Assembly: GCA_011389995.1 (NCBI GenBank)
Contig: JAABTG010000009.1
Span: forward strand, 13,482-77,481
Reading direction: 5' to 3'
Origin: Thiotrichales bacterium
GTDB taxonomy: Bacteria; Pseudomonadota; Gammaproteobacteria; JAABTG01
DNA: 64,000 nucleotides
Positions 1,211 through 63,380 of the stretch are shown here, in pieces. The notes beneath the pieces are model-generated. The model had not been told where the DNA came from. It saw only the letters and a program-made list of their open reading frames with translations, and did no database searches. The position numbers and the translations under genes are program-made. Position 1 is the first letter of the stretch. The number at the start of each line of letters is the position of its first letter.

Positions 1211-1223
1211 GACAGCGTCAACC

Positions 1224-2501: not shown

Positions 2502-3085
2502 GACTCACTCCATTGGGGTAGAAACAGGAAGAAAAGCTTTATTAGAATTTTCGCTATTTGAATACATCAGGCTTATCAACCGCTTTAATCCAAATCAAGT
2601 TCGCAGTCCAAACTTACCCATTTCGGATGATCTGCGGCAAAAACAACGAGAACGCTGCCAATTCCCGCTTTTTCCCTACAATTAATCGGGCCTTATGTGC
2701 GTTCATGGGGCGCCTCCCGTTGTTCGCAGCATCCGCCTCCCGGGATTATGTTCGCCTCAGGGCATATCCGGCCCCTCGGCGCGACGGTATCCCTCTGCGC
2801 CGTCGACCGTCCCAGGGCCCTGGCGGGCCGACGGCCGTGACGTCGAGGGATCTGAGCTACTCCGGCGGCGCGAAGGATTGCGTGTCGGGGTGGTCGGCCC
2901 GCCGGTCTATGCAGATGTAACCGTGAAACGCAGTCCCAAAGAGCCTCCCGGAGCCTCCTCACACCGCACCAACCGGCTCACCTTCCACGGCTTCGAGCGA
3001 GGACACGTCGCGGTGGTCGCCGCGGGGCTGTCGCCCCTGGTGCGGGAGTCACCACCGGCCGTGAACAGCGGCAGTGGGCGGGGCG

Positions 3086-3727
3086 TCACTCGGCCTCGGA
3101 CAGGGTCACGATGGTGCCGGCCTCCAGGACACGACCCTCGAACAGGTCGTCGTCCATGCGCCCGGAGACGCTCACCTTGTCGCCCACCTCGACCTGCTGG
3201 TAACCCTCATCATCCAGCGGGTCGTAGGCCATCTCGTCCACCTCCACGGTGATGCGCCGGTCACCGGAATCGATGGTGAACTCCTCGTCATTCACCGCGG
3301 TCACGGTGCCCTGGACGATGGTCCCGGAGATGACCACCGGCGTGGTGATGGTAACGAAGGTGTCCTCCTCGTCCACGGCCGAGGCATAGAAATACGTGCC
3401 GATATTCTCCACGTAGACGCTGCTGGCCTCGATGGTGCGGGTCTCGTAGAGGTCGTCGTCGATGATGCCGCTCACCGACACCTTGTCGCCCTCAATCAGC
3501 TTGTAGCCGTCGGCGTCGCGATCGCCGTCGTCCATCTCCACGGTGATGATGCCCTCGCCGTAGTCGAGGACGAAGGCATCCCGGTCGACGCTCTCCACGG
3601 TACCGCTGATGCTGATCCAGGTGTCATCGGGCCTGGTGGCCGGGTCCTCCGCCGCCGTCACCGGCGGCGTCGCGACCAGTCCGAGAATGCCCACCAGTAT
3701 GAAACCCTTCGTTGTCATGACATTCAT
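3086..3727 (-). CDS. Secreted acidic protein with two tandem YgiW/BOF-like OB-fold domains (hypothetical)
   Basis: Signal peptide MNVMTTKGFILVGILGLVATPPVTAAEDP, with a GGGAGA Shine-Dalgarno 5 nt upstream of that ATG. Two ~90-aa internal repeats share the pattern SGTVxSVDxDxFxLDxGxGxITVExDD...GDKVSVSGxxDDDLxExRxxEA, resembling the YgiW/BOF OB fold. The track ORF extends to 3811, but the SD supports the start at 3727. Confidence 0.6.
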   Translation of the reverse strand: MNVMTTKGFILVGILGLVATPPVTAAEDPATRPDDTWISISGTVESVDRDAFVLDYGEGIITVEMDDGDRDADGYKLIEGDKVSVSGIIDDDLYETRTIEASSVYVENIGTYFYASAVDEEDTFVTITTPVVISGTIVQGTVTAVNDEEFTIDSGDRRITVEVDEMAYDPLDDEGYQQVEVGDKVSVSGRMDDDLFEGRVLEAGTIVTLSEAE

Positions 3728-3946
3728 GTCTGTCTCCCGTTGCATGTTCTTTAAATTAACCGGCCTGCGGCACAGTCGGAACGCTGCGCCGGAATAGCAC
3801 AGAAGAGGCAACGGGGATGCCAGGGGCGCGGCAACGGCGAAACAGCCACGCCCACAACGTAAGCCGCCACCAGGGTGGGGCTTTTCAGCCGGGAGAATGG
3901 GGAAATAACCCGCCCCGCCGAGGGGCCGCGAACGGGTTGGCCCGAC

Positions 3947-5906: not shown

Positions 5907-7424
5907 TCAAAGCTTCGACTGCACCATATGCCCGATCAGATGCTCCACCGTGGGATGCATCACCTCCAGAATGGGCTGGGGCCAGACCCCGAAGAGGATG
6001 ACCACCACGGCCAGGACGCCGAGGATCAGGAACTCCCGGGTGGCGAGGTCGCCGAGTCCGGCCACCTTGTCGTTGGCCACCTTGCCGTAGATGACCCGCT
6101 TGTACATCCACAGGTTGTAGGTGGCCCCCAGCAGCAGGATGCTGGCGGCCAGGAAGGCGTACCAGAAATTGGCCTGGAAGCTGGACAGGATGACCATGAA
6201 CTCACCCACGAAGCCGGAGGTACCCGGCAGGCCCGAGTTGGCCATGATGAACAGCATCATGAAGGCGGCGAATACCGGCATGGGATTGGCCACGCCGCCA
6301 TAGGCACCGATCTCGCGGGTGTGCATGCGGTCGTAGAGCACCCCCACGCACAGGAACAGGGCGCCGGAGATGAAGCCGTGGGAGATCATCTGCATCATCC
6401 CCCCCTCCATACCCAGGGCCGCCCCCTGGATGTCCCCGGTGTTGTCGAGGATGGCGAAGGCCACGAAGAAGCCCAGGGTGACGAAGCCCATGTGGGAGAT
6501 GCTGGAGTAGGCCACCAGCTTCTTGAGGTCCTTCTGGACGATGGCCACGAAGCCGATGTAGACCACGGCGATGAGGGACAGGCCGATCATGAGCCAGTCC
6601 AGCTCGCGGCTGGCATCGGGGGTGATGGGCAGGCTGAAGCGCAGGAAGCCGTAGCCGCCCATCTTGAGCATGATGGCCGCCAGCACCACGGAGCCGCCGG
6701 TGGGGGCCTCCACGTGGGCATCCGGCAGCCAGGTGTGCACCGGCCACATGGGCACCTTCACCGCGAAGGCGATGAGGAAGGCCAGGAAGATGAGAATCTG
6801 CGCCGACAGGCCGATGGAGACCACGTGCATGTCCTGGATGGCGAAGCTGCCGGCCTGACCGTAGAGATAGAGCAGGGCCACCAGCATGAACACCGAGCCC
6901 AGGAAGGTATAGAGAAAAAACTTGATGGTGGCGTAGATGCGGTTGGGCCCGCCCCAGATGCCGATGATGAGAAACATGGGGATGAGCATGGCCTCCCAGA
7001 ACACGTAGAACAGCATGGCGTCCATGGCGGCGAACACGCCGTTCATCAGGCCTTCCATGATGAGGAAGGCCGCCATGTACTGGCCCACCTTGTACTGGAT
7101 GACCTCCCAGGCGGAGATCACCACCAGCACCGTGGTGAAGGTGGTCAGCAGTATCAGGGGCATGGAGAAGCCGTCCACCCCGAGGTGATAGTTGATGCTG
7201 AAGGCCTCGATCCAGGGCATCTTCTCCACGAACTGCATGGCCGGCGTGGTGGTGTCGAAGCCGGTGTAGAGGGGGATGGAGAGCAGGAAGGTGGCCAGGG
7301 ACACCACCAGGGCGATCACCCGTGCACCCTGGGCGTTGCGCTCGCCGGCGGCGAGGATCCACGCGCCACCCAGGATGGGCAGCCACACCAGCAGGCTCAG
7401 AAGGGGCAGTTTCTCGAACAGCAT
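5907..7424 (-). CDS. nuoM: NADH-quinone oxidoreductase subunit M
   Basis: 505 aa; NuoM/ND4 family membrane subunit. Confidence 0.9.
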   Translation of the reverse strand: MLFEKLPLLSLLVWLPILGGAWILAAGERNAQGARVIALVVSLATFLLSIPLYTGFDTTTPAMQFVEKMPWIEAFSINYHLGVDGFSMPLILLTTFTTVLVVISAWEVIQYKVGQYMAAFLIMEGLMNGVFAAMDAMLFYVFWEAMLIPMFLIIGIWGGPNRIYATIKFFLYTFLGSVFMLVALLYLYGQAGSFAIQDMHVVSIGLSAQILIFLAFLIAFAVKVPMWPVHTWLPDAHVEAPTGGSVVLAAIMLKMGGYGFLRFSLPITPDASRELDWLMIGLSLIAVVYIGFVAIVQKDLKKLVAYSSISHMGFVTLGFFVAFAILDNTGDIQGAALGMEGGMMQMISHGFISGALFLCVGVLYDRMHTREIGAYGGVANPMPVFAAFMMLFIMANSGLPGTSGFVGEFMVILSSFQANFWYAFLAASILLLGATYNLWMYKRVIYGKVANDKVAGLGDLATREFLILGVLAVVVILFGVWPQPILEVMHPTVEHLIGHMVQSKL

Positions 7425-12066: not shown

Positions 12067-14448
12067 TCAGCCCCTGTCCAGGCTCACCTCGCCATAGGCC
12101 GGACCGGCGAGGCCGGCGGCCGTGGAACCCATGTAGATCAGCACCCCGCCCTCGGCGAGCCGCTCATCGAGGCGTGCGGTGACGGTCACGGCGCCGGCGG
12201 AGCCGGCCATCGTCAGATGGGCGGCATCCCCGTCGCCCAGGCCCAGACGCTCGGCGTCCGCCGGATGCATGTAGACCGCCTTCCCCGCCTTGCGTCCGTC
12301 CAGGGTGTCCTGCAACGAACCGGCACGGCGCACCACCGCGTCCGTGCCATAGATGGCGGGCTCCGGGATGCGGCCCAGCTGCCCCGCCCCTTCTTCCCCG
12401 TCACCCGGTTCCCCCAGGGCGTCGATACCGCGCACCGCCTGGTCATCCACCCCCTTGCGCACCTCGTCGTGGACCTGGCCGCAATTGGTGTAGTCGAAGC
12501 CCTCCAGACCCAGCCGGTTGGCCAGCACCCGCAGCACCTTCCAGGCCGGGCGGGCCTCCCCCACCGGGCGGGCGGCGCCTTCGAAGCGTTGCCACAGGCC
12601 GGCGGCGTTGACGTGGGTGCCCGCGGTCTCGGCAAACACGCCGATGGGCAGCAGCACGTCGGCCTGGGCCTCCAGCTCGGGGGTGCGGTAGGCGCTCAGG
12701 CAGACGGTGAACTCCGCCTCCTGCAGCCGCCGCGCCGCGAGACCTCCGTCCCAGCAGTCGGCCGCCGCTTCCACGCCCACGGTGACGAAGCCCTTGAGGC
12801 CCCTTGCCAACATGGCCGCGGCGTCCAGGCCGGCCACGCCGGCCGCCGCACCCCCCGCCTCCCGCAGGGGCAGGGCCCCCGCCAGATGGCCCCCCACGCT
12901 GTTGGCGGCGGGTAGGTAGCCGCGCACGCCGCCGGTGGCCCGGGCGATGTAACCGGCCAGGGCGCGCAGGGTGGTGAAACGGGGATGGGCCAGGGCCATG
13001 GCACCGAGCAGGATCAGTGGCCGCTCCGCCGCGTTCAGCCCTGCGGCCACGGCGCGATGGTCATCGGTCATCTCGGCCGCGGCGATGAGGTCACCGAGGA
13101 CCCCGTCGGGCAGATCCCTGTCCAGGGCCCGGGCCACGCCGGCCAGGGTGGCAGTCCAGCGAGCGGTGTTGATGCCTGGATTGAAGGCGGTGTCGTAGTT
13201 GAAATCGTAGCGTGCGGGGTTCAGGAACATGGCCCGCGCGCCCCCCTGCACCGCCTTGCGCAGGCGGTGATTGAGGATGGGCACCTCCTTGCGCAGGTGG
13301 GAACCCACCACCAGGAAGGCATCCCGGCCCTCGAACTCTTCAAAGCTCAGGTTGAGCCCCGGAAACAGCGGGTCGTTGCCGGCGTCACCGAAGTCCACCT
13401 GGCGCAAACGATGATCGATGTTGCCCGAGCCCAGTCCGCGCAGCAGACGCTGGGTGAGGTAATGCTCCTCCAGGGTGGCGGCGGGAGATACCAGGGCCCC
13501 CAGTTCGGCGGGCCCGTGGGCCTCCACCACGGCCCGCAGACCGTCGGCCGCCGCCTCCAGGGCCACGTCCCAGTCCGCCTCCTGCCATTTGCCCTTGACC
13601 TTCACGACGGGCCGCTCGAGGCGGTCCTCGGCATAGATCCCCTGGTAGCTGTAGCGGTCGCGGTCCGACAACCAGGTCTCGTTGACCGCCTCGTTGTCCC
13701 GCGGCACCACCCGCATCACGCGACCTTCCCGGGTGTGGAGAAACAGGTTGGAGCCCACGCAGTCGTGGGGCGCGACACTCGCGCGCTGCATCAGCTCCCA
13801 GGCCCGGGCCTTGAAGCGGAAGGGCTTGTTGGTGAGGGCGCCCACCGGGCAGAGGTCGATGACGTTGCCCGACAACTCCGAGTCCATGTTGCGCTCGATG
13901 AAGGTGCCGATGCGCATGTCCTCGCCCCGACCGGTGGCCCCGAGTTCCCGGATCCCCCCGATCTCCTCGCCGAAGCGCACGCAGCGGGTGCAATGGATGC
14001 AGCGGGTCATGTCGGTGGCGATGAGGGGCCCGAGATCCTTGTCGGGCACCACCCGCTTGCGCTCGGAGAAGCGCGACACGTCGCCGCCGTACCCCATGGC
14101 CACGTCCTGCAGCTCGCACTCGCCACCCTGGTCGCAGATGGGGCAGTCCAGGGGATGATTGATGAGCAGGAATTCCATCACCGACTTCTGGGACCGCAGC
14201 GCCTCCTCGGAGCGGGTATAAACGGTCATGCCGTCGTTGACGGGCGTGGCACACGCGGGCAGGGGCTTGGGTGCCTTCTCCACCTCCACCAGGCACATGC
14301 GGCAGTTGGCCGCCACCGACAGCTTCTTGTGGTAACAGAAGCGCGGAATGTGGATGCCCGCCTCGTCCGCCACCTGGATGAGCATGGTGCCGCGGGGGGC
14401 CTTGAGCTCCCGGCCGTCGATATGGATGGTGACGAGGTCTTCGGACAT
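12067..14448 (-). CDS. nuoG: NADH-quinone oxidoreductase subunit G (75-kDa Fe-S subunit)
   Basis: 793 aa. N-terminal 2Fe-2S and 4Fe-4S Cys motifs are present (CYHKKLSVAANCRMCLVEV, CPICDQGGECELQ). MopB-like C-terminal domain. Confidence 0.9.
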   Translation of the reverse strand: MSEDLVTIHIDGRELKAPRGTMLIQVADEAGIHIPRFCYHKKLSVAANCRMCLVEVEKAPKPLPACATPVNDGMTVYTRSEEALRSQKSVMEFLLINHPLDCPICDQGGECELQDVAMGYGGDVSRFSERKRVVPDKDLGPLIATDMTRCIHCTRCVRFGEEIGGIRELGATGRGEDMRIGTFIERNMDSELSGNVIDLCPVGALTNKPFRFKARAWELMQRASVAPHDCVGSNLFLHTREGRVMRVVPRDNEAVNETWLSDRDRYSYQGIYAEDRLERPVVKVKGKWQEADWDVALEAAADGLRAVVEAHGPAELGALVSPAATLEEHYLTQRLLRGLGSGNIDHRLRQVDFGDAGNDPLFPGLNLSFEEFEGRDAFLVVGSHLRKEVPILNHRLRKAVQGGARAMFLNPARYDFNYDTAFNPGINTARWTATLAGVARALDRDLPDGVLGDLIAAAEMTDDHRAVAAGLNAAERPLILLGAMALAHPRFTTLRALAGYIARATGGVRGYLPAANSVGGHLAGALPLREAGGAAAGVAGLDAAAMLARGLKGFVTVGVEAAADCWDGGLAARRLQEAEFTVCLSAYRTPELEAQADVLLPIGVFAETAGTHVNAAGLWQRFEGAARPVGEARPAWKVLRVLANRLGLEGFDYTNCGQVHDEVRKGVDDQAVRGIDALGEPGDGEEGAGQLGRIPEPAIYGTDAVVRRAGSLQDTLDGRKAGKAVYMHPADAERLGLGDGDAAHLTMAGSAGAVTVTARLDERLAEGGVLIYMGSTAAGLAGPAYGEVSLDRG

Positions 14449-35029: not shown

Positions 35030-35152
35030 CTTTTATAGTTCTTCAGGAGTCGGGTATGCGGTCCCGGCGGCCGGCCCACGGCCGGGGACAAACGCGAAAC
35101 GCGGGCCGTGCCCGCGCTCGCTTTCCCCGGCTTCAGGCCAACGGGCCAGGGC

Positions 35153-37105
35153 TCACTTCTTGTCGTCGTTCACCTCTTCGAATTCCGCGTCGACCACATC
35201 GTCTTCGGCACGACCGGAACCCTCCTGGCCGGCCGCCCCACCAGCGGCCCCGCCCCCGGCGGCGCCACCGGCCGTACCGGAGGCCGCCTGTTGCTGGTAG
35301 ACCCGCTCCGCCAGCTTGCCGGAGGCCTCGGCCAGGGCGTTGGTCTTGGCCTCTATTTCGTCCTTGTCGCTGCCCTTCATGGCCTCTTCCACGGCATTGA
35401 TGGCGGACTCGATCTGCTCCTTCTCGCCGGCCTCCACTTGATCCCCCAGATCCGACAGGGATTTGCGGGTGGCATGGATGAGGTTATCCGCCTTGTTGCG
35501 GGCATCCACCGTCTCATGGAACCTCTTATCCTCGTCGGCATGGGCCTCCGCGTCCTTGACCATGTTGTCGATCTCGTCGTCCGACAGGCCGGACGAGGCC
35601 TTGATGACGATGGACTGGGCACGGTTGGTGGCCTTGTCCTTGGCCGACACGTTGAGGATGCCGTTGGCGTCGATGTCGAAGGTGACCTCCACCTGGGGCA
35701 CACCCCGGGGCGCGGGGGGGATGTCCGTGAGGTCGAAACGCCCCAGGGACTTGTTGGCCGAGGCCATCTCCCGCTCACCCTGGAGCACGTGCACCGTCAC
35801 CGCCGTCTGGTTGTCCTCCGCGGTGGAGAACACCTGGTTGGCCTTGGTGGGGATGGTGGTGTTCTTCTCGATGAGCTTGGTCATCACGCCCCCCAGGGTC
35901 TCGATACCCAGGGACAGGGGGGTGACATCCAGCAACAGCACGTCCTTCACCTCACCGGAGAGCACGCCGCCCTGGATGGCGGCGCCCACCGCCACCGCCT
36001 CGTCCGGGTTCACGTCCTTGCGGGGTTCGCGACCGAAGAATTCCTTGACCGCCTCCTGGACCTTGGGCATGCGGGTCTGGCCCCCCACCAGGATCACCTC
36101 GTCGATGTCCGACCCGCTGAGGCCGGCGTCCTTGAGGGCCACGCGGCACGGGTCGATGGTGCGGGTCACCAGATCATCCACCAGGGATTCCAGCTTGGCG
36201 CGGGTGATCTTCATGTTCAGGTGCTTGGGGCCGCTGGCGTCGGCGGTGATATAGGGCAGATTCACCTCCGTCTGCTGACTCGAGGAGAGCTCGATCTTGG
36301 CCTTCTCCGACGCCTCCTTGAGGCGCTGCAGGGCCAGGGGGTCGTTGTGGAGGTCGACGCCACTCGACTTCTTGAACTCGTCGGCCAGGTAATCGATGAG
36401 GCGCAGGTCGAAGTCCTCGCCCCCGAGGAAGGTGTCGCCGTTGGTGGACAGCACCTCGAACTGGTGCTCCCCATCCACATCCGCCACCTCGATGATGGAG
36501 ATATCGAAGGTGCCGCCGCCCAGGTCGTACACGGCGATCTTCTGATCACCCCGCCGCTTGTCCATACCGTAGGCCAGGGCCGCCGCCGTGGGCTCGTTGA
36601 TGATACGCTTGACATCCAGGCCGGCGATGCGCCCGGCATCCTTGGTGGCCTGACGCTGGGAGTCGTTGAAATAGGCCGGCACGGTGATCACCGCCTCCTT
36701 GACCTCTTCGCCCAGGTAATCCTCGGCGGTCTTCTTCATCTTCTGAAGCACCCGGGCGGCGATCTCGGGCGGGGCCATCTTCTTGCCGTTCACCTCGACC
36801 CAGGCATCGCCGTTGTCCGCCTTGGTGATCTTGTAGGGCACCATGGAGATGTCCTTCTGCACCACGTCATCCTCGAAACGCCGTCCGATGAGGCGCTTGA
36901 TGGCGAACAGGGTGTTGGAGGGATTGGTCACCGCCTGACGCTTGGCCGACTGCCCCACCAGGATCTCGTCGTCGCTGGTGAAGGCGACGATGGACGGTGT
37001 GGTACGGTCACCCTCGCTGTTCTCGATGACGCGCGTCTTGTCGCTTTCCATGATGGCCACGCATGAATTGGTGGTCCCGAGGTCTATGCCGATGACTTTG
37101 CCCAT
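35153..37105 (-). CDS. dnaK: Molecular chaperone DnaK (Hsp70)
   Basis: Start [17 protein letters not shown] with a GGAG SD. Full-length Hsp70. The track ORF is extended by 4 codons. Confidence 0.95.
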
Positions 37106-37191
37106 TGTTTTCTCCAAAAACGGTTCGTGTCTGTTACTGAAAGACTTCTATGTTGTTCCATATGGGGCCATGGGGGCCCGATTCAACAGGT

Positions 37192-54004: not shown

Positions 54005-56353
54005 ATGGCCGCCAAGCCCTCCACCCGCCCCCGCCCCCATCCCACCCGTATCGGTCGCTACGTGGTGGGAGGGATCCTGGGCCGCGGTGCCCAGGGGGTG
54101 GTCTACCTGGCCACGGATCCGGAACTCGACCGGGAGGTGGCCATCAAGACCCTGACCCGCCGCACCCGGGATGCCGCCACCCTCCTCAAGGAGGCCCAGC
54201 TGGTGGGACGCATGAAACACCCCGGCATCGTGCCGGTATACGACGCCGGGCGCCTGGGGGACGTGCCCTACGTGGTCTACGAGCGGGTCAGGGGGCGCAC
54301 CCTGGACCAGGTGCTCGCGGAGGAGCCCCGCCTGCCCCTGCCCCGCATCGTGGCCTGGATGACGCAGATCCTGGACGCCCTGGAATACGCCCATGGCCAG
54401 CAGGTGGTGCATCGCGACATCAAACCCGCCAACGTGGTGATTCAGGACGACGACTCCCCGCGGGTGCTGGATTTCGGCATCGCGCTCCCCAGCGGTACCG
54501 AGACCCGGGTCATGGAGGGCCTGTGGGGCACCTTCCAGTACCTGGCACCGGAGATGGTGGACAAGGGGCGGGCCACGGCGGCCACGGACATCTTCTCCCT
54601 GGGGCTCATCCTGTTCGAAATGCTCACCGGCCGGCGCGCCATCGCCGAAGACGACCCCATGGCGGCCATGTACCACATCGCCCATCGGCCGGTACCCCCG
54701 CCGTCATCCATCCGTCCCGAGGTGGCCCCCGGCCTCGACGGCATCGTGTCCCGGGCCCTGCAGAAGCGGCCCGACGCCCGTTACTCCGATGCCGGCGAGA
54801 TGCGGGACGCCCTGGCGGTATTCGCCGAACCCGAGGTGCACGAGCATGAGCCACGCCGCCAGTCGACCCTGAATTTCCTGTTGCGGCGCATGCGCCAGAA
54901 GCCGGATTTTCCCGCCATCGGGCGCCACATCTCGGAGATCAGCCAGAAGACCGCCGCCATCGATCGCGCATCGGTGGACGAGCTCACCAACCTGATCCTG
55001 GAAGACTATGCCCTCACCACCAAGCTGCTGCGGCTGGTGAACTCCTCCTACTACGGCCAGTACGGTGGTTCCATCAGCACCGTATCCCGGGCGGTGGTGA
55101 TCCTCGGCTTCAACCAGGTGCGCATGGCGGCCCTGAGCCTGCTGCTGTTCGAGCACATCGCCGACAAGCCCAACGTGCCGGTGCTCAAGGAGGTGGGCGG
55201 ACGGGCCTTCTTCAGCGGCCTCATCAGCCGCCGCCTGGCCGCCGACATGGCCCACGCCGACGCCGAACAGGGCTTCGTGAGCGCCATGTTCCACACCCTG
55301 GGACGCTATCTGTCGGCCTATTATTTTCCCGACGAGGACGAGGAGATCGGCCGTCTCATGGACAACCAGGGCCTGTCCGAGGAGGCCGCCGCCGTGGCAG
55401 TGCTCGGCCTCACCTTCGAGGCCCTGGGCATCGGCGTGGGCAGGGAGTGGCATCTGCCCTCCGAACTCCTGGAAGGCATGCGCACCCTGGGTGTCGACGA
55501 GATGCCGCGGCGTCCCGCCAACCCCCGGCAGGCCATGCGCCTGCTGTCCTGTTTCGCCAACGAGGTGGCCATGGCCATGGGCGGCGACGACCCCGGCGCA
55601 TGCCACGAACGCCTGTCACAGCTGGAGCAGCGTTACGGTCAGGCGGTGCGGCTGGCGCCGGACCGCATGCAACAGGTGATCGCCGAGGGCGTGGAGGATA
55701 TCCAGCGCTTCTCCCGCGCCGCCGCCATCGACCTCGGCGACAATGCCATCCTGCGCAACGCCCGCCGCCTGGGGCGGCAGGAGGAGGACTCGGAGGACGA
55801 GGACCCTCGGGAAGGTGCCGCCGTGGAGGACAGCGGCCAAAACGACGCACCATCGACCCAGACCACGCTGCTGAGCGGCATTCAGGACATCAGCCAGGCC
55901 CTGGTGGACAACTACGGCATCAACGACATTCTCATCATGATCCTCGAGACCCTGTTCCGGGGTCTCGGCTTCACGCGGGTGGTGCTGTTCATCAACAACT
56001 CCCGGCAGGCCGAGATGAACGCCCGCTTCGGCCTCGGTCGCGACATCGACAAGCTGCTGCCCCGCCTCAAGTTCTCCACCACCAGGGCCCAGGACATATT
56101 CGGCCGGGCGGTGCGCGAACACGAGGACATCATCCAGGTCCAGGGGCCCCGGGGGGGAGACATACCGGCCTGGCACCGCGACCTGCTCTCTCCCAGCACC
56201 TTCGCCCTCTACCCGGTAATCATCGGCAACAAGTGCCTCGGCCTCATCTACGCCGATCGCGACGAACGCAACCGCCCCATCACCGAAGCCGAGCGCAATT
56301 ACCTCAACACCCTGCGCAACCAGGCGGCCCTGGCGATTCGGCAAAGATCATAG
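54005..56353 (+). CDS. Hanks-type Ser/Thr protein kinase fused to HDOD and C-terminal GAF domains
   Basis: N-terminus has GxGxxG (ILGRGAQGVVY), catalytic HRDIKPANV, DFGIA and APE. The middle has the HDOD signature (LRLVNSSYYGQYGGSISTVSRAVVILGFNQVR). The C-terminal ~180 aa are GAF-like. Confidence 0.8.
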   Translation: MAAKPSTRPRPHPTRIGRYVVGGILGRGAQGVVYLATDPELDREVAIKTLTRRTRDAATLLKEAQLVGRMKHPGIVPVYDAGRLGDVPYVVYERVRGRTLDQVLAEEPRLPLPRIVAWMTQILDALEYAHGQQVVHRDIKPANVVIQDDDSPRVLDFGIALPSGTETRVMEGLWGTFQYLAPEMVDKGRATAATDIFSLGLILFEMLTGRRAIAEDDPMAAMYHIAHRPVPPPSSIRPEVAPGLDGIVSRALQKRPDARYSDAGEMRDALAVFAEPEVHEHEPRRQSTLNFLLRRMRQKPDFPAIGRHISEISQKTAAIDRASVDELTNLILEDYALTTKLLRLVNSSYYGQYGGSISTVSRAVVILGFNQVRMAALSLLLFEHIADKPNVPVLKEVGGRAFFSGLISRRLAADMAHADAEQGFVSAMFHTLGRYLSAYYFPDEDEEIGRLMDNQGLSEEAAAVAVLGLTFEALGIGVGREWHLPSELLEGMRTLGVDEMPRRPANPRQAMRLLSCFANEVAMAMGGDDPGACHERLSQLEQRYGQAVRLAPDRMQQVIAEGVEDIQRFSRAAAIDLGDNAILRNARRLGRQEEDSEDEDPREGAAVEDSGQNDAPSTQTTLLSGIQDISQALVDNYGINDILIMILETLFRGLGFTRVVLFINNSRQAEMNARFGLGRDIDKLLPRLKFSTTRAQDIFGRAVREHEDIIQVQGPRGGDIPAWHRDLLSPSTFALYPVIIGNKCLGLIYADRDERNRPITEAERNYLNTLRNQAALAIRQRS

Positions 56354-56385: not shown

Positions 56386-56449
56386 GCCGAGATGGGCCAT
56401 CCATGGCCCACTTCGGCGCGGCAGGGGAAAACGCGGTTTTCCCCTGCCT
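56386..56449 (+). repeat. 64-bp direct repeat, copy A, with a perfect 12-bp-stem hairpin (GCAGGGGAAAAC-GCG-GTTTTCCCCTGC)
   Basis: gccgagatgggccatccatggcccacttcggcgcggcaggggaaaacgcggttttcccctgcct. Repeated 160 bp downstream with 1 mismatch. Confidence 0.85.
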
Positions 56450-56545: not shown

Positions 56546-56630
56546 GCCGGGATGGGCCATCCATGGCCCACTTCGGCGCGGCAGGGGAAAACGCGGTTTT
56601 CCCCTGCCTCGCGGGGGCTTCCGGCCAAAG
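56546..56630 (+). repeat. 64-bp direct repeat, copy B, plus the shared tail ctcgcgggg(a/g)cttccgg
   Basis: Identical to copy A apart from g/a at position 5. Copy A carries an extra 38-bp GC-palindromic insert before the shared tail. Confidence 0.85.
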
Positions 56631-56704
56631 CTCATGCGGCTAGGGCGCGTAGCCGAGCGGGGGTCGGGAGTCGGGGGTGGACCAGCACTAAGGGCATCAC
56701 AATT

Positions 56705-56751
56705 AAAAATTCAAAATTCAAAATTCAAAATTGAAACCGCATAGCGGTTTC
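56705..56751. repeat. Heptanucleotide tandem array (AAAATTC)x~4 followed by an 8-bp-stem hairpin (gaaaccgc-ata-gcggtttc)
   Basis: Direct read: aaaaattcaaaattcaaaattcaaaattgaaaccgcatagcggtttc. AT-rich island ~260 bp upstream of fdhD. Confidence 0.8.
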
Positions 56752-57006
56752 CTGCCGTGGTGAGGACCAAGGATGTGGAAAATTGTGCCAAGAGTGCTCA
56801 CATTCCTAGCCATATTGTCCTATCCATGAGGAATGCAGGGACAAAATGCGGCAATCTCCGGTGGTTTTGCCGACGACGACGGGGCTTTGCGCCCCGTAAC
56901 CGCGGTCCCCGGGGCGCTGCCGGCCCGATGGGAATGGTTCTTGCTTGGACTTTGGGAGGCCGCCGCGGCAGGCGGCCATCGGCTTACCCAGGAGTACCCC
57001 AGCCCC

Positions 57007-57915: not shown

Positions 57916-58833
57916 ATGAGCGCCGTCATGACCACCGACACGCCCGCCGTCTTCATGAACGTCAAGCAGGTGGCCAGTTATCTCCACCTCAACGAAAAGA
58001 AGATCTACGCCATGGCCAGCGAGGGGCGGATCCCGGCCACCAAGATCACCGGCAAATGGATGTTCCCCCGGGAACTCATCGACCGCTGGATACTGGACTC
58101 GGCCCACGGCGGCCTGCTGGTGGACCGCCTGGCCATCGCCGGCAGCGATGACCCCCTCCTCTACCGGGTGGTGACGGGCTTCACCCGCGACCTCAAGGCC
58201 CACGCCCAGATCAGCTACACCCCCACGGGCACGCGCCTCGGCCTGGACCTGCTGCAGTCCCAGCGCATCGACGTGGGCGGGCTGCACTGGGGGCCCGGCA
58301 CCGAGAGCCATACCCGCCATCCCGCCCTGCTGCGCCAGTATTCCCAGCACCGCAACTGGGTGCTGATCCGCGCCTTCTCCCGGGAGCAGGGGCTGATGGC
58401 CCGGGCCTCGGTGCTCAGCCGCACCAGGGACCCCGCGGAACTCGCCGCATCCCGCTTTCGCTGGGTGCAGCGCCAGTCCGGTTCCGGCGCCCAGCGTTTC
58501 CTCATGGAGATGTACAACCAGCCCGGGGCCTGGCCCCACAGCCTCAACGTCACCACCACCGCCCTGTCGGAGCGCGAGGCGGCCACCGCCATCGTCATGG
58601 ATCAGGCGGACGTCGCCCCCGGCTCGCGGGCCGCCGCCAACGAGGCCGGCCTCGGCTTCGTCTCCTTCGGCTGGGAATCCTTCGACTTCGCCCTGCCCCG
58701 CAACATCTGGTTCCGGCGCCTGTTCCAGGAGCTGCTGTCGCGTCTCAACTGCGGCGAGGGCCGCCGCCTGGCGGACACCCTCGGGGGCTACGAGATGAAG
58801 GGCACGGGGGAACTGGTGTGGGCCCACGAATAG
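57916..58833 (+). CDS. Excisionase/MerR-type HTH DNA-binding protein fused to a periplasmic-binding-protein-like (molybdate/tungstate-type) domain
   Basis: N-terminus VKQVASYLHLNEKKIYAMASEGRIPATKITGKWMF (HTH_17-like). The ~250-aa C-terminal domain has PBP-fold-like alternating pattern. Located between fdhD and mobAB. Confidence 0.55.
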   Translation: MSAVMTTDTPAVFMNVKQVASYLHLNEKKIYAMASEGRIPATKITGKWMFPRELIDRWILDSAHGGLLVDRLAIAGSDDPLLYRVVTGFTRDLKAHAQISYTPTGTRLGLDLLQSQRIDVGGLHWGPGTESHTRHPALLRQYSQHRNWVLIRAFSREQGLMARASVLSRTRDPAELAASRFRWVQRQSGSGAQRFLMEMYNQPGAWPHSLNVTTTALSEREAATAIVMDQADVAPGSRAAANEAGLGFVSFGWESFDFALPRNIWFRRLFQELLSRLNCGEGRRLADTLGGYEMKGTGELVWAHE

Positions 58834-58962: not shown

Positions 58963-58993
58963 GCCCAGGGAAAATCGCATTTTCCCTGGGCGT
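58963..58993. promoter_or_regulatory. Perfect palindrome CGCCCAGGGAAAAT-CGC-ATTTTCCCTGGGCG, related to the 56386/56546 hairpin
   Basis: Shares the core GGGAAAAnCGCnTTTTCCC with the hairpin in the tandem repeat upstream of fdhD. Confidence 0.5.
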
Positions 58994-59034
58994 GCGCTGA
59001 GAAAGCCAGGATGGCTTTATTCAGCGCTTTTATT
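58994..59034 (+). terminator. Rho-independent terminator (hairpin plus TTTTATT) shared by convergent fdhD-HTH and sigma54-activator transcripts
   Basis: gcgctgagaaagccaggatggctttattcagcgc followed by ttttatt. The T-run overlaps the stop codon of the minus-strand regulator gene. Confidence 0.65.
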
Positions 59035-60493
59035 ATGAACTCCCCCAGGCCTGACACTTGCGCTCCAGGGTCTTGCGGGATATCCCGAGCCGCCGTGCCG
59101 CCGCGGACTTGTTGCCGTCCTCCATGGCCAGCACCCTGAGGATGTGGCGGCGCTCCACGCTCTCGAGGGACAGGTCGTCCTCCTGGCCCGCCACCGCCTC
59201 CTCCGGGGTGCCCCGATATCCGGACAGGCACTGGGACGGCCGGCTGTTGAGCAACAGGGCGCGTTCGATGACGTTGCGCAATTCCCGGATGTTGCCCGGC
59301 CACTCGTAACGGGCCAGCCGATCCAGCTCGGCGTCGCCGATGGCCGGGGCCTCCACCCCCAGTTCGGTGGCCAACAGGCCGCAGAAGTAATGCACCAGTT
59401 CGGGCAGGTCCGCCGCCCGCTCCCGCAGGGCCGGCATACGAATGCTGAGGACGTTGAGGCGGTAGTACAGGTCCTCGCGGAACCTGCCCTCGGCCACCTC
59501 CTGTTGGAGTTGACGGTTGGTGGCGGCCACCAGACGCACGTCCACGGTGACCTGGGAATTGCCTCCCATGGGCCGCACCGCCCGTTCCTCCATCACCCGC
59601 AGCAGATGGGTCTGCATGGTCAGCGGCATCTCGCCGATCTCATCCAGGAACAGGGTGCCGCCGTCGGCGTAGGAGAACAGGCCTTCCCGCGCCTGACTCG
59701 CCCCCGTGAAGGCCCCTTTGACGTGGCCGAACAACTCGCTTTCCAGCAACTCGCCGTTCATGGAACCGCAGTTCACCGGCACGAAGGCCCCGTTTCGGCC
59801 GCTCCAACGGTGCAGGGCCCGGGCCGCCAACTCCTTTCCGGTGCCGGACTCGCCCTCGATGAGCACCGTGGAGGGCCTGGGGGCCACCCGCTTGATGACG
59901 TCACATATGCCCTTGATGGCCTCGCAGGAACCCACCATGCCACTGCTGTCATAGAGGTGATCCACCTGGCGATGGAGGGCATAGTTCTCCTGCTCCATGC
60001 GCCGACGCTCCAGGGTGCGCGTCAGGGCCTCTTCCATCTGCTCCATGGTGAAGGGCTTGAGGATCAGGTCCGAGCCCCCGGAGCGCAGGGCCTCGATGGC
60101 GGTCTTCACGTCGGCGTCGGCGGCCATGAAGATCACCGGCGTGCCGCAATCGCGGGCCCGCAGATCAAAGACCCAGTCCACCCCGGAACGGTCCGGCAGA
60201 CCCACCGCGACGATGATGAGATCGAAATGGCAGCGGGCCAGCAGTTCGTCGGCGGTGCTGCTGTTCTCCACTACTTCCACGAGGCTGAAGCGGGGGAGGA
60301 GCCCTTTGCGCAGCAGGTTGATGGTGGCCGTGTCGCCGTCCACCACGAGGACCGAGCTGAGACGTGCGTTGGGGGTCGTGGAGGCCTGGGGGCTCGCCGC
60401 GTCAGTCACCGCGGCCGCCTCGACCCGCCGGGTATGAACCCTGGAATCGCGTCGAACATGCTCTCTCCTTGGCTGGGGACAGAAGAAACCCAA
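59033..60493 (-). CDS. Sigma54-dependent two-component response regulator (NtrC family: receiver + AAA+ sigma54-activation + Fis HTH)
   Basis: Receiver domain (VLVVDGD ... [14 protein letters not shown]). AAA+ domain with Walker A GESGTGKE, the GAFTGA motif ([11 protein letters not shown]) and ELFGH. C-terminal HTH ([20 protein letters not shown]). The N-terminus is uncertain: the track start is a TTG and there is no early ATG. Confidence 0.85.
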
Positions 60494-60537
60494 AGGGGCC
60501 GGGATGCCCAGGGTTACTCCTCAGGACAGGTGAAAAT

Positions 60538-60552
60538 AGGACATTCTGTCCT
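60538..60552. promoter_or_regulatory. Palindromic putative enhancer-binding site AGGACA-TTC-TGTCCT
   Basis: A perfect 6-bp inverted repeat with a 3-bp spacer, plus an adjacent half-site (caggacagg). It lies ~175 bp upstream of the sigma54 promoter, in the divergent regulator/mobA intergenic region. Confidence 0.4.
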
Positions 60553-60718
60553 GCGCATTCAACCCGAATTGGTCAATTTGCCCCACATCGTCGGCGGCCT
60601 GACGGATCCGGTTCCCTCGCTCGGGTGGAGCACCGGGGTCCATGCGGGACACCGGCGCCGGACGATCCACCGTCCCGGCATCCGCCCCACGCCCGTGGCC
60701 GCGCCAAAGGAGCGCCCA

Positions 60719-60735
60719 TGGCACCGGTATTGCTT
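60719..60735 (+). promoter_or_regulatory. Sigma54 (-24/-12) promoter for mobA-mobB-moeA
   Basis: TGGCACcggtaTTGCTt matches TGGCAC-N5-TTGCW exactly. It lies 180 bp upstream of the mobA ATG on the coding strand. Confidence 0.65.
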
Positions 60736-60915
60736 ATGCAACAATCTCTTTAGAACGTGCTCCCATCCCGTGACGCCTGGAACCATGCCCCTTACCGCCC
60801 TGTCCCTCCACCTCCGCCCCCGCCTCACGGCCCCGCCATGGCCTCCCGCGGCCACCGGCGCCGGGGGTTTGAACCCCGTCACCGTGTCTCCCGCTGGCCA
60901 CAAGGTGTCCGGGGC

Positions 60916-61548
60916 ATGACCCGCGGGCGGACCAACGGTATCACCGCCCTGGTGCTCGCAGGGGGGCGCGGCCGGCGCATGGGCGGCAGGGACAAGGGCC
61001 TGGTGGAACTCCGGGGACGCCCCCTGGTGGCCCATGTCCTGGACGCCATCGCCCCCCAGGTGGAGGCGGTGCTCATCAACGCCAACCGCAACGGCGACCG
61101 CTACGCCGCCTTCGGCTGGCCCGTGGTATCGGATGCCCTGACGGACTACCAGGGCCCCCTGGCGGGCTTCGCCGTGGGCATGGCGGCGAGCACCACCCCC
61201 CTGCTTCTCACCCTGCCCTGCGACGGCCCCATGGTGGCGCCCCATCTGGCCGAGCGCCTGGCCGGCGCCCTCGAAGGGGCCGGGGCGGATATCGCCGTGG
61301 CCCATGACGGCAACCGTATGCAGCCCGTTTACGCCCTCCTGCGCTGCACCCTGCTGCCGAGCCTGGAGGCCTTCCTGGCCGCCGGCGACCGCAAGATCGA
61401 CCTGTGGTACGAAGGGCACCATACCGTCAACGTGGATTTCTCCGATTTCCCGGAGCAGTTCACCAACGTCAACACCCCGGAAGAGCGGGCCCGCCTCGAA
61501 GGTGAGGCAACAGGCGACGCCCAGGTGGCCCAGCATGGCGCAGATTGA
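60916..61548 (+). CDS. mobA: Molybdenum cofactor guanylyltransferase MobA
   Basis: Start MTRGRTNGITALVLAGGRGRRMGG ... DKGL (LAGGxxxRMG motif). The track ORF is extended upstream to 60757. Confidence 0.85.
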   Translation: MTRGRTNGITALVLAGGRGRRMGGRDKGLVELRGRPLVAHVLDAIAPQVEAVLINANRNGDRYAAFGWPVVSDALTDYQGPLAGFAVGMAASTTPLLLTLPCDGPMVAPHLAERLAGALEGAGADIAVAHDGNRMQPVYALLRCTLLPSLEAFLAAGDRKIDLWYEGHHTVNVDFSDFPEQFTNVNTPEERARLEGEATGDAQVAQHGAD

Positions 61549-62098
61549 GTATCCGGTCCCCCTCATGGGCTTCGCGGCCTTCAGCGGCACGGGCAAGACC
61601 ACGCTGCTGGCCCGCCTGTTGCCGGCCCTCACGGCCCAGGGCCTGCGCATAGCCGTGGTCAAGCACGCCCATCACAGCTTCGACATTGACCATCCGGGCA
61701 AGGACAGCCACACCCTGCGTCAGGCGGGGGCCGAGCGCATCCTGGTGGCCTCCCGCCATCGCATGGCCCTCATCGTCGAGCAGGCCGAGCGGCGGGACGA
61801 CGTCTACCTGGCCGATGCCCTGGCCATGCTGGACCCCGCGGGACTGGACCTGGTGGTGGTGGAGGGCTTCAAGCATGAGTCCTTCCCCAAGATAGAGCTG
61901 CATCGCCCCGCCCTGGGCAAGCCCCTGCTCCACCCCGACGACCCCACCATCGTGGCCATCGCCACCGACGGCGAAGGGCCCGGCAGCGGCTACGGCATCC
62001 CCCACCTGCCCCTCAACGGGCCCGCGGACATCGCCGCCTTCGTCATCACCCACCTCGGCCTGACACCGCGCCCCTCACCGACGCCCCCCAGGGCCTGA
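61535..62098 (+). CDS. mobB: Molybdopterin-guanine dinucleotide biosynthesis adapter MobB
   Basis: Start MAQIEYPVPLMGFAAFSGTGKTTLL (P-loop). MobB family. Overlaps the mobA end. Confidence 0.8.
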   Translation: MAQIEYPVPLMGFAAFSGTGKTTLLARLLPALTAQGLRIAVVKHAHHSFDIDHPGKDSHTLRQAGAERILVASRHRMALIVEQAERRDDVYLADALAMLDPAGLDLVVVEGFKHESFPKIELHRPALGKPLLHPDDPTIVAIATDGEGPGSGYGIPHLPLNGPADIAAFVITHLGLTPRPSPTPPRA

Positions 62099-62102
62099 AG
62101 CC

Positions 62103-63380
62103 ATGTCGCCTTCCGATGCCATCCGCAATGCCACCCCGTCCTGTGCCGACGACTCGGATCCCGGGGCCCTCGCCATCGACGAGGCCCGCCGGCGCATCGC
62201 CGCCCTCGCCGTCCCCGTCGCCGGTGGCGTGCGGGTGGCCCTGCGCAGCGCCCTGGGGCGCGTGCTGGATGCCGATGTGGTGTCGCCCCGCGATGTCCCC
62301 AACCACACCAACTCCGCGGTGGACGGGTATGCCCTGGCGGGCTCGGACCTGCCGCCGTCGGGCACCCGGGAGCTCACCGTGGCGGGCGCGGCCCTGGCGG
62401 GTACGCCCTTCGCCGGGCGATGGCAGGCCGGCGCCTGCGTGCGCATCATGACCGGCGCGGCCATGCCCGCCGGCACGGACACGGTGGTGATGCAGGAGCA
62501 CGTCGACGCGGCGGGGGAAGGGCGCATCCGCATCGACGATCGCCACCGGCCCGGCCAGAACGTGCGCCAGGCCGGCGAGGACATCGCCGCCCACAGCGTG
62601 GTGCTGCCCGCCGGGCGCCGCCTGACGCCGGCGGACATGGGGGTCATGGCCTCCCTGGGCCTCGGCGAGGTCACGGTGCATCGCCCGGTGCGGGTGGCCT
62701 TCTTCTCCACCGGCGACGAGCTGCGCGCCGTGGGGGATCCCCTGGGGCCCGGGGATGTCTACGACAGCAATCGCTACACCCTGTTCGGCATGCTCGAACG
62801 GCTGGGGGTGGAGGTCCTGGACCTCGGCGTGGTGCGGGACTCCGCCGCGGAGCTGGCCCGGGCCTTCAGCCGGACCTCCGCCATGGCCGACGTGGTGATC
62901 ACCTCGGGTGGGGTGTCCGTGGGCGAGGCGGACCACATCGGCGCCGTGCTGGGGGACCGGGGCCGGGTGGAATTCCGCAAGCTGGCCATGAAACCCGGCC
63001 GGCCCTTCACCTTCGGCCGGCTCGGGGACGCCCTGTTCTTCGGCCTGCCCGGCAACCCGGTGGCGGTGATGGTCACCTTCTACCTGCTGGTGCAACCCAC
63101 CCTCGGCCAACTGGCCGGCGCCGGCTGGCAGGAGCCCCTCACCCTGCGGGCCACCAGCACCGGCCGTATCCGCAAACGCCCGGGGCGCTTCGAATGCGCC
63201 CGCGGCATCCTCGACCACGCCGCCGCCGGCGGCCCGACGGTTGCGGTGACGGGCAGCCAGGGCTCCGGCATGCTCACCTCCATGAGCCGCGCCGACTGCT
63301 TCATCCTGCTCCCCGAATCCCAGGGCACGGTGGAGGCGGGGGAGACGGTCACCGTGGCACCCTTCGCCGCCTTCGTCTGA
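62103..63380 (+). CDS. moeA: Molybdopterin molybdotransferase MoeA
   Basis: 425 aa; MoeA N- and C-domains. The MoCF-biosynthesis domain is present (VVITSGGVSVGEADH). Confidence 0.85.
   Translation: MSPSDAIRNATPSCADDSDPGALAIDEARRRIAALAVPVAGGVRVALRSALGRVLDADVVSPRDVPNHTNSAVDGYALAGSDLPPSGTRELTVAGAALAGTPFAGRWQAGACVRIMTGAAMPAGTDTVVMQEHVDAAGEGRIRIDDRHRPGQNVRQAGEDIAAHSVVLPAGRRLTPADMGVMASLGLGEVTVHRPVRVAFFSTGDELRAVGDPLGPGDVYDSNRYTLFGMLERLGVEVLDLGVVRDSAAELARAFSRTSAMADVVITSGGVSVGEADHIGAVLGDRGRVEFRKLAMKPGRPFTFGRLGDALFFGLPGNPVAVMVTFYLLVQPTLGQLAGAGWQEPLTLRATSTGRIRKRPGRFECARGILDHAAAGGPTVAVTGSQGSGMLTSMSRADCFILLPESQGTVEAGETVTVAPFAAFV

Follow-up and report, generated by a model that had tools for sequence, protein, structure and literature searches.

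Within the 64-kb stretch of DNA analyzed here (the window), mobA, mobB and moeA lie divergently from a gene that encodes a sigma-54 activator, and fdhD and an HTH/PBP-like gene, the latter convergent with the activator gene, complete the locus (Table 1). Searches against Pfam and NCBIfam bore out the identities that the initial annotation had given to mobA, mobB and moeA, and Pfam likewise recovered fdhD, the HTH protein with a PBP-like domain, and the receiver-AAA+(GAFTGA)-Fis architecture of the divergent response regulator. The longest open reading frame was rejected as the activator gene in favor of the version with a GTG start. What had been described as a PsrA-like molybdenum cofactor (Moco) enzyme at the far end of the window is actually NuoG of complex I (12067-14448). 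The window does not contain rpoN.

Table 1. Genes and putative regulatory features of the locus (window coordinates; L081 is the locus of the closest relative)
Feature	Position	Strand	Remarks
Two blocks with half-dyads, AGCCAtatTGTCC and GGACAaaaTGCGG	56808-56851		30 bp apart; flanks diverge relative to L081
Second sigma-54-like promoter, GGGAAT-ggttc-TTGCT	56930-56945	+	62 nt upstream of fdhD start codon
fdhD, formate dehydrogenase sulfurtransferase/chaperone, 300 aa	57008-57910	+	Pfam FdhD-NarQ, 1.8e-69
HTH_17 + PBP_like regulator, 301 aa, TunR-type architecture	57928-58833	+	HTH_17, 5.9e-12; PBP_like, 1.7e-38
Sigma-54 activator (bEBP), 458 aa, GTG start	59033-60409	-	Response_reg + Sigma54_activat (GAFTGA) + HTH_8 (Pfam)
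Candidate upstream activating site, perfect dyad AGGACA-TTC-TGTCCT (AGGACAttcTGTCCT)	60538-60552		Unique in window
Second, weaker dyad-like block, GGTCAATTTGCCC	60571-60583		Kept between window and L081
Sigma-54 promoter, TGGCAC-cggta-TTGCT	60719-60734	+	Faces mobA-mobB-moeA
Predicted 5' leader, ~170 nt	60746-60915	+	Only last ~45 nt (RBS, start region) conserved relative to L081
mobA, molybdenum cofactor guanylyltransferase	60916-61548	+	TIGR02665, 235 bits (cutoff, 152); Pfam NTP_transf_3
mobB	61535-62098	+	Pfam MobB, 8.9e-47; overlaps mobA stop by 14 nt
moeA, molybdopterin molybdotransferase	62103-63380	+	NF007960, 540 bits (cutoff, 440); start 4 nt past mobB stop

The sequence in front of mobA (TGGCACcggtaTTGCT; TGGCACCGGTATTGCT) matches TGGCAC-N5-TTGCW without a single mismatch, and its GG and GC elements are spaced by exactly the 10 nt that the sigma-54 (-24/-12) class demands. 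It is intergenic, points at the downstream gene, and is the sole occurrence of the exact consensus in the 64 kb, which confirms the position and orientation originally proposed; the distance to mobA, previously put at about 180 bp, measured 182 nt from the end of the match (60734) to the start codon (60916). We infer that transcription starts at this promoter, with a predicted start near 60745-60747. In the resulting leader, Rfam gave no match to a Moco riboswitch, whether at the gathering score or at an E value of ≤1, and no RNA element was recognizable (fold z-score, 0.24). A scan of the activator-mobA spacer for sigma-70-like promoters, crude for a genome of such high G+C content, also found none.

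The perfect dyad that had been noted about 175 bp above the promoter is indeed present, centered 174 bp upstream of the -24 GG and 136 bp from the GTG start of the divergent activator gene, likewise on the upstream side, and its core (GGACANNNTGTCC) occurs nowhere else in the window (0.08 expected). In an alignment with L081, whose activator is 84% identical to that of the window, 21 nt at the dyad are identical, and both the dyad and the promoter are perfectly conserved, as islands inside a diverged spacer. The additional half-site AGGACA (60523-60528) that had been reported farther upstream is not kept in L081. The weaker block at 60571-60583, 32 bp center to center from the main dyad, is a candidate second activator site, and in two other loci (L086 and L087) the main dyad is accompanied, at about 33 bp, by a similar weaker site.

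The initial annotation had named absence of the promoter from orthologous loci as grounds for rejecting sigma-54 control. In a phylogenetically nonindependent set of 19 distinct orthologous loci from five orders (among them Vibrio, Photobacterium, Shewanella, Aeromonas, Thiothrix and metagenome-assembled genomes of sulfur oxidizers), 17 have TGGYAY-N5-TTGC facing the operon (at tupA or mobA) and divergent from the activator gene, and 16 have a GACA-N3-TGTC dyad, which in loci with both elements lies 84 to 202 bp upstream of the promoter. The control set, 800 kb of unrelated activator-encoding loci, gave 13 matches to the promoter pattern and 7 to the dyad. All of the loci L001 to L009 have mobA-mobB-moeA divergent from an orthologous activator. 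L001 has neither promoter nor dyad, and L085 has kept the dyad and lost the promoter, indicating that the circuit can be lost. Could both elements in the window simply be chance matches in a G+C-rich spacer? The exact consensus is expected about 0.25 times per 64 kb when both strands are counted, and 22% of shuffled windows contained at least one exact match somewhere; however, the expectation falls to about 0.001 for one orientation of the 506-bp intergenic region. That position and orientation, the conservation over five orders against the background, the conserved islands in L081 and the ChIP-seq signal at the Vibrio cholerae orthologue (see below) effectively refute this reading, to which we attach a negligible probability.

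The promoter in front of fdhD, missed in the initial annotation, likewise forms an island of conservation when the window is aligned with L081, and GGGAAT, AGGAAT, CGGAAC or TGGAAC followed by N5-TTGC precedes moaA-fdhD or fdhD in L083, L088, L090, L091 and L009. The blocks AGCCAtatTGTCC and GGACAaaaTGCGG, 87 to 117 bp above this promoter, are kept in L081 and are candidates for weaker activator sites. The HTH/PBP-like gene occupies the same position in eight other loci (L003, L005, L009, L081, L083, L088, L090 and L091). Judging from these sequence features, the regulon most likely also takes in fdhD and the HTH/PBP-like gene.

The activator combines a receiver, an NtrC1-like helical linker, an AAA+ domain in which all motifs are intact (Walker A from residue 186, GAFTGA from 232 and Walker B from 256) and a C-terminal Fis-type HTH. 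It scores below every NCBIfam cutoff for the named equivalogs (AtoC, NtrC, ZraR, GlrR, NtrX and others), the best being AtoC with 376 bits (cutoff, 714) and NtrC with 366 (cutoff, 559). The receiver is degenerate: the acidic pair DD has become DG (D24 and G25), the acceptor Asp is Ala68, and Thr is Ala96, while K118 is kept. Alignment with orthologues identifies Gly25 as replacing one Mg-binding Asp and Ala96 as replacing the switch Thr, and P0002 to P0004 have the same acceptor and Thr substitutions. The protein therefore lacks the phosphorylation residues of a group I bEBP (acceptor Asp, complete acidic pair and switch Thr), and its activation cannot depend on phosphorylation. Even so, the degenerate receiver is still under purifying selection; compared with L081, every domain has a dN/dS of about 0.2 (receiver, 0.19; AAA+, 0.16).

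No homologue of the sCache_3 kinase was found in the 64-kb window, nor is one present at the syntenic L081 locus. tupABC is also absent from the window, as it is from L001, L003, L081, L085, L089 and L091, and so is not universal. A TupABC-like transporter and the sCache_3 kinase are encoded in relatives. Receiver degeneration tracked kinase loss in all 22 loci examined: D or T is lost in 10/10 loci without the kinase, and both are intact in 12/12 loci with it. The ancestral form is a two-component system of sCache_3 histidine kinase and activator, with the kinase gene directly following that of the activator, often driving tupABC-mobA-mobB-moeA. The suggestion that the window lacks the cognate kinase held as far as its absence goes, but not in the sense that the kinase is merely elsewhere; because the activator has no phospho-acceptor Asp, it is not expected to be the target of any kinase. 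In relatives that retain the Asp, a kinase may be encoded elsewhere in the genome.

Sigma-54 control of mobAB-moeA, which had been regarded as unusual, is instead widespread in the gammaproteobacteria and partly known. In V. cholerae, VC1523-27 (described as an ABC transporter plus the synthesis of molybdopterin) has an RpoN site by ChIP-seq and is RpoN dependent, the RpoN-bound site TGGCATCCCATTTGC being orthologous to the mobA promoter; fdhD (VC1519) has an RpoN ChIP site of its own, and fdhD and the FDH operon are both RpoN bound and RpoN dependent (PMC3439928). That study assigned neither activator nor binding site (Dong & Mekalanos 2012, PMC3439928). SO4718 of Shewanella oneidensis is annotated as a [quoted passage not shown] (PMC2667191). 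Like the window, VC1522/VC1523-27 and SO4718 pair a sigma-54 regulator with a divergent operon whose last genes are mobA-mobB-moeA, TGGCAY-N5-TTGC faces the operon, and fdhD also lies behind a sigma-54 promoter; two Vibrio loci (L007 and L008) have the same layout and dyad. The window has the divergent activator, promoter and GACA-N3-TGTC dyad of this regulon, and fdhD, with its own sigma-54 promoter, and the HTH_17/PBP_like gene downstream. However, in Vibrio and Shewanella the operon still begins with tupABC, the activator gene is followed by that of an sCache_3 kinase, and the receiver has its Asp and Thr intact, none of which holds for the window. Genes of molybdenum and tungsten metabolism are usually controlled by TunR-type HTH + PBP-like regulators, by ModE, or by the Moco riboswitch. 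The locus resembles the TunR type in its HTH_17 + PBP_like architecture and in having target genes in Mo/W cofactor metabolism, but it departs from the usual controls in having no Moco riboswitch and in that the recognizable operon promoter is of the sigma-54 type.

Among solved structures, the best relative of the activator is Aquifex aeolicus NtrC1 (PDB 4L4U and 1NY5; top PDB scores). NtrC1 and DctD-type activators have the same domain order, and NtrC1 aligns without gaps through the receiver, the helical linker (NtrC1 segment EHRKLRKENELLRRE) and AAA+. Phosphorylation of the receiver Asp is what switches NtrC1; the window activator has Ala68 at that position and Ala96 in place of the switch Thr. 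The unphosphorylated NtrC1 receiver has been reported to hold the ATPase off. Activators of the FleQ/FlrA type have REC-like N-terminal domains and are not phosphorylated, and others act unphosphorylated. The activator resembles the FleQ/FlrA type in its receiver-like fold without a working phospho-acceptor or partner kinase, but FleQ is not close; matches to its chains begin no earlier than query residue 84 and score lower. Control of FleQ is by c-di-GMP and FleN, and we know of no comparable control for the window activator.

Taken together, we consider it about 80% probable that a conserved gammaproteobacterial sigma-54 regulon, which serves the supply of W/Mo bis-MGD cofactor, is present here in a reduced form that has no kinase. 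The idea of a Mo/W-bis-MGD supply module under sigma-54/EBP control is supported by the conservation of promoter and dyad and by the V. cholerae RpoN data. The activator would bind the GGACA-N3-TGTCC dyad and probably also the weaker site next to it; through DNA looping and ATP hydrolysis, it would open the closed complex of the sigma-54 holoenzyme at the promoter, which would drive mobA-mobB-moeA as a single, translationally coupled operon. The same activator would most likely drive fdhD and the HTH/PBP-like gene from their weaker promoter. The lineage of the window is without the kinase gene and tupABC, and its receiver is without the acceptor Asp, one Mg-binding Asp and the switch Thr. Activity is now most likely constitutive, limited by the level of the activator, or set by some other signal, for instance through the HTH/PBP-like protein that senses Mo/W.

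The promoter may be real and the dyad nonetheless the operator, exclusive or shared, of the HTH_17/PBP_like (TunR-type) oxyanion-sensing regulator, so that Mo/W status gates the operon. The HTH/PBP-like gene and the locus are conserved together, the dyad spans a short 13 bp, with half-sites only about 8 bp apart center to center (short for a Fis-type HTH dimer), it lies 136 bp above the activator gene and could help regulate it, and L085 retains it despite having lost the sigma-54 promoter. Nevertheless, the distance from the promoter is typical of an enhancer rather than an operator in every locus; the dyad occurs in L004, L006, L008 and L089, though no HTH/PBP-like gene lies within the stretch examined at these loci; a one-mismatch version precedes another sigma-54 promoter in L083, that of the DUF3305 (FDH) operon; and a binding site for an activator, or its equivalent, is required at every sigma-54 promoter. 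We therefore think an operator unlikely and infer that the dyad is bound by the activator. We regard as less probable still that the activator is a decaying relic, locked off after loss of the kinase, with a silent promoter and with mobA-mobB-moeA transcribed from an unrecognized constitutive promoter. Given NtrC1 as closest solved relative and a linker that aligns to it gaplessly, an unphosphorylatable receiver could be locked off on the NtrC1 model; that erosion of the circuit can happen is seen in L085 and L001; and our sigma-70 scan was crude enough for a constitutive promoter to be possible. Such decay is hard to reconcile with the low dN/dS in all domains, receiver included, with intact ATPase motifs, and with a promoter and dyad perfectly kept in an 84%-identical relative across a diverged spacer. 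Moreover, acceptor-less, kinase-less variants in at least three groups all retain promoter and dyad, and no sigma-70-like promoter was found.

The sigma-54 circuit itself, widespread and seen in V. cholerae, was already known. What is new is the loss of kinase and tupABC in the window, a receiver that is degenerate yet selected, and a second sigma-54-like promoter before fdhD. One tentative possibility, which we favor less than the reduced regulon as such, is that several lineages of sulfur-oxidizing Gammaproteobacteria have repeatedly shed the sensor kinase and that the maintained pseudo-receiver takes a different input (e.g., a small ligand, or contact with the HTH/PBP-like regulator that binds Mo/W) and is not simply constitutively on. 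If true, these loci would represent a natural series of rewirings of the NtrC1-type off-switch.

Comparison with orthologous loci supported the central proposal of the initial annotation, namely, that mobA-mobB-moeA is controlled by sigma-54 and the divergently encoded activator. A TGGYAY-N5-TTGC promoter facing tupA or mobA is conserved in 17 of 19 distinct orthologous loci (L001 and L085 lack it), and an exact GACA-N3-TGTC dyad (consensus GACAT-T-Y-TGTC) was found in 16, lying 84 to 202 bp upstream of the promoter in loci having both. A lack of promoter conservation among orthologues, which the initial annotation named as grounds for refutation, is clearly not what is seen. As background, 800 kb of unrelated activator-encoding loci from the same scan contained 13 matches to the promoter pattern and 7 to the dyad. 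Nine of the orthologous loci (L001 to L009; 46 to 59% identity) were obtained by scanning species-representative genomes with the activator, and derive from a Chromatiales MAG, Thiothrix lacustris, a gammaproteobacterial MAG, Shewanella frigidimarina, Aeromonas salmonicida, two Photobacterium and two Vibrio; ten further distinct loci came from a protein search and contig look-ups, among them the syntenic L081 (GCA_034522055.1; activator identity, 84%). mobA-mobB-moeA is divergent from the activator in all nine of L001 to L009, with a TupABC-like ABC transporter (PBP_like_2 binding protein, permease, and ATPase) at the operon head in L002 and L004 to L009, and a sCache_3/HAMP/HisKA/HATPase histidine kinase gene follows the activator in L001 to L010. 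Two control regions are eroded: that of L085 (3157-3441) retains a dyad (AGGACATTTTGTCAT) ca. 55 nt before mobA without a sigma-54 promoter, and that of L001 (5640-6001) is missing both promoter and dyad, with kinase and receiver intact.

Within the window, the gene identities first assigned (activator, mobA, mobB, moeA, fdhD, and an HTH protein) were confirmed by Pfam and NCBIfam, the upstream genes being fdhD and an HTH_17/PBP_like gene. Since mobA overlaps mobB by 14 nt and 4 nt separate mobB from moeA, these genes form one operon; smpB comes next. The HTH/PBP-like gene is convergent with the activator gene and lies directly after it, as it does in L081. (In L089, three moeA paralogues [732-3873] adjoin the locus; one carries a fused PBP_like domain, as found in this regulator.) No tblastn match to tupABC or the kinase was obtained anywhere in the window, which also contains no FDH catalytic subunit. 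What had been read as a PsrA-like Moco enzyme is NuoG, inside a nuo operon; with the antiporter subunit beside it, it represents complex I and is not a Moco enzyme. Elsewhere, an ORF (35108-37066, +) very strongly matches Pfam PF10712 (NAD-GH), a family suspected of being an artefact of translating dnaK in antisense; the real gene is likely the ORF of 654 aa on the other strand (35153-37117).

Features of the locus and of the nuo region (window coordinates)
Feature	Position	Strand	Remarks
NuoM/N-type antiporter subunit	5907-7424	-	beside NuoG
NuoG	12067-14448	-	Fer2_4, NADH-G_4Fe-4S_3, Fer4_Nqo3
half-dyad block AGCCAtatTGTCC	56808-56820		upstream of fdhD promoter
half-dyad block GGACAaaaTGCGG	56839-51		upstream of fdhD promoter
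sigma-54-like promoter GGGAATggttcTTGCT	56930-56945		62 nt ahead of fdhD ATG (57008)
activator (P0001)	59033-60409	-	GTG start, 458 aa; Response_reg, Sigma54_activat, AAA_lid, HTH_8 (Pfam)
dyad AGGACAttcTGTCCT	60538-60552		upstream of promoter; core GGACANNNTGTCC
sigma-54 promoter TGGCACcggtaTTGCT	60719-60734	+	faces mobA-mobB-moeA
mobA	60916-61548		TIGR02665, score over cutoff
mobB	61535-62098		Pfam/NCBIfam
moeA	62103-63380		NF007960, score over cutoff

The promoter and dyad originally described are present at their reported positions. TGGCAC-N5-TTGC has a sole exact match in the 64-kb window, against ca. 0.25 expected on both strands and ca. 0.001 in one orientation inside the 506-bp spacer, and the dyad core has one exact copy against 0.08 expected. 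When up to one mismatch is allowed, the core occurs 10 times across the window versus 3.0 expected (10 being reached by no shuffle), and only the site at 60539 is exact. Alignment with L081 left three identical or near-identical islands within a diverged spacer: the dyad (GAAATAGGACATTCTGTCCTG), a second block (GGTCAwTTTGCCCC), and the promoter (ATGGCAyCGGTATTGC-TATGCA). The half-site that had been noted upstream (60523-60528) is not conserved in L081. A simple scan found no sigma-70-like promoter in the spacer and located one ahead of smpB; inspection by eye found no convincing IHF site between dyad and promoter. A Moco riboswitch or other RNA element was rejected for the 170-nt leader, which is no more structured than expected (z, 0.24) and, like the spacer, matches no Rfam family.

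A comparable arrangement precedes fdhD, where the promoter and the two half-dyad blocks, spaced 30 bp apart, are conserved islands with respect to L081. With promoters before both fdhD and mobA, the activator gene therefore lies between two sigma-54 operons. Equivalent promoters stand ahead of moaA-fdhD or fdhD in L083, L088, L090, L091, and L009 (-24 elements GGGAAT, GGGAAT, AGGAAT, CGGAAC, and TGGAAC, respectively, before N5-TTGC), and the divergent DUF3305/DUF3306 (FDH) operon of L083 is served by a separate sigma-54 promoter, a one-mismatch dyad lying ca. 75 bp upstream of it. In relatives, sigma-54 promoters lie back to back (L083, 9815-10035; L088, 11488; L090, 12163 and 12367; L091, 15840), directed toward moaA-fdhD-(HTH/PBP-like) one way and DUF3305-DUF3306-(FDH) the other, which suggests that the entire FDH and W/Mo cofactor module is a single sigma-54 regulon. 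The 650-bp spacer before fdhD also contains two 64-nt repeat copies (56386-56449 and 56546-56609; 98% identical), each terminating in a GGCAGGGGAAAAC-gcg-GTTTTCCCCTGCC hairpin; these copies resemble REP-type elements. Where the HTH/PBP-like and activator genes converge, a similar hairpin (CCCAGGGAAAATcgcATTTTCCCTGGG, 58963-58989) could be a bidirectional terminator. An A+T-rich tandem repeat (TCAAAATTCAAAAT, 3 × 14 nt, 56697-56738) interrupts the otherwise very G+C-rich spacer, and a partly similar stretch is present in L081.

Sigma-54 control of these genes, initially considered unusual, is widespread and already known at the regulon and annotation level. In V. cholerae, expression of VC1523-27 is 5.4- to 2.1-fold RpoN dependent; the same RpoN table lists fdhD (VC1519), VC1518-17, and the FDH operon VC1516-10 (dependence reaching 64-fold or more), and there is an RpoN site at fdhD (PMC3439928). 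VC1522, divergent from VC1523, is a response regulator. The literature searched yielded no binding site or direct characterization for the VC1522/SO4718 activator family, and nothing specific on a characterized tungstate or formate sigma-54 two-component system. The circuit itself is of a known, thinly studied kind; new here are a form with a pseudo-receiver and no kinase, the fact that this form has emerged repeatedly, and the enhancer motif.

The pseudo-receiver is evident from an orthologue alignment and a gapless alignment to Aquifex NtrC1. In the window activator, the acidic motif VVDDE has become VVDGD (Gly25), the acceptor Asp of DLxIxDIRLP is Ala68 (codon GCG, 60206-60208), and FMT is FMA (Ala96); Lys118 is kept. 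The close homologues P0002 and P0003 (93 to 94% identical) share all three changes, and P0004 (84%) has the acceptor and Thr changes with its acidic pair (VVDDD) still in place, which rules out sequencing error. The Walker A, Walker B, and GAFTGA motifs are all intact, and comparison with L081 gave dN/dS values of 0.19 (receiver) and 0.16 (AAA+ domain); judged by its sequence, this is not a decaying protein. The acceptor Asp is missing from 11 of the 120 closest homologues, in at least three groups, each with nearest neighbours that keep it. Among 22 phylogenetically nonindependent loci, the kinase is present in all 12 in which Asp and Thr are both intact (L001 to L010, L091, and L092) and missing from all 10 in which either is replaced (the window, L081, and L083 to L090). 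A strict rule by which Asp implies a kinase was rejected on account of L088 to L090, which keep Asp and have lost both Thr and kinase; what does hold is that a kinase occurs only where both residues are intact. These three loci suggest that kinase loss came first and receiver decay after. With the exception of L085, the kinase-less variants have retained promoter and dyad alike. In L083, L084, L086, L087, L090, and L091, the gene after the activator, or after the kinase if there is one, is ThiF/MoeB-like; in kinase-less loci, the deletion took the kinase gene and left this gene directly behind the activator. Beside fdhD, and syntenically in L081, lies a gene for a Ser/Thr protein kinase with fused HDOD and GAF domains (54005-56353; Pfam), which is missing from the other orthologous loci; any input from it to the kinase-less activator is purely speculative.

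Most likely, the activator would bind the dyad as an enhancer, contact the sigma-54 closed complex through a DNA loop, and open it by ATP hydrolysis, thereby driving mobA-mobB-moeA and, more weakly, fdhD and the HTH/PBP-like gene. The HTH/PBP-like protein is an alternative candidate for the dyad, although we favour the activator because of the enhancer-like distance and because dyads occur in loci without a nearby HTH/PBP-like gene. In NtrC1 and DctD, the ATPase is held off by an unphosphorylated receiver dimer, and NtrC1 (4L4U and 1NY5) is the closest solved relative, the alignment taking in a gapless helical linker (EHRKLRKENELLRRE). One possibility is that the Ala68 protein is locked off; however, purifying selection speaks against this, as does retention of the promoter and enhancer. 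It is also possible that the off-state no longer works, so that activity is constitutive and depends on protein level, or that another signal has replaced phosphorylation.

These findings correct the view of mobAB-moeA as solely constitutive or controlled by ModE/FNR: in many Gammaproteobacteria, a single sigma-54 regulon appears to cover tungstate uptake, FDH maturation, and the final steps in making bis-MGD. GACA-N3-TGTC is a candidate enhancer motif for the VC1522/SO4718 activator family. For annotation, the acceptor Asp needs to be checked before such proteins are named two-component response regulators. The kinase-less, acceptor-less variants constitute a natural series for studying what becomes of an NtrC1-type receiver off-switch, whether re-use or disablement, after the loss of phosphorylation.
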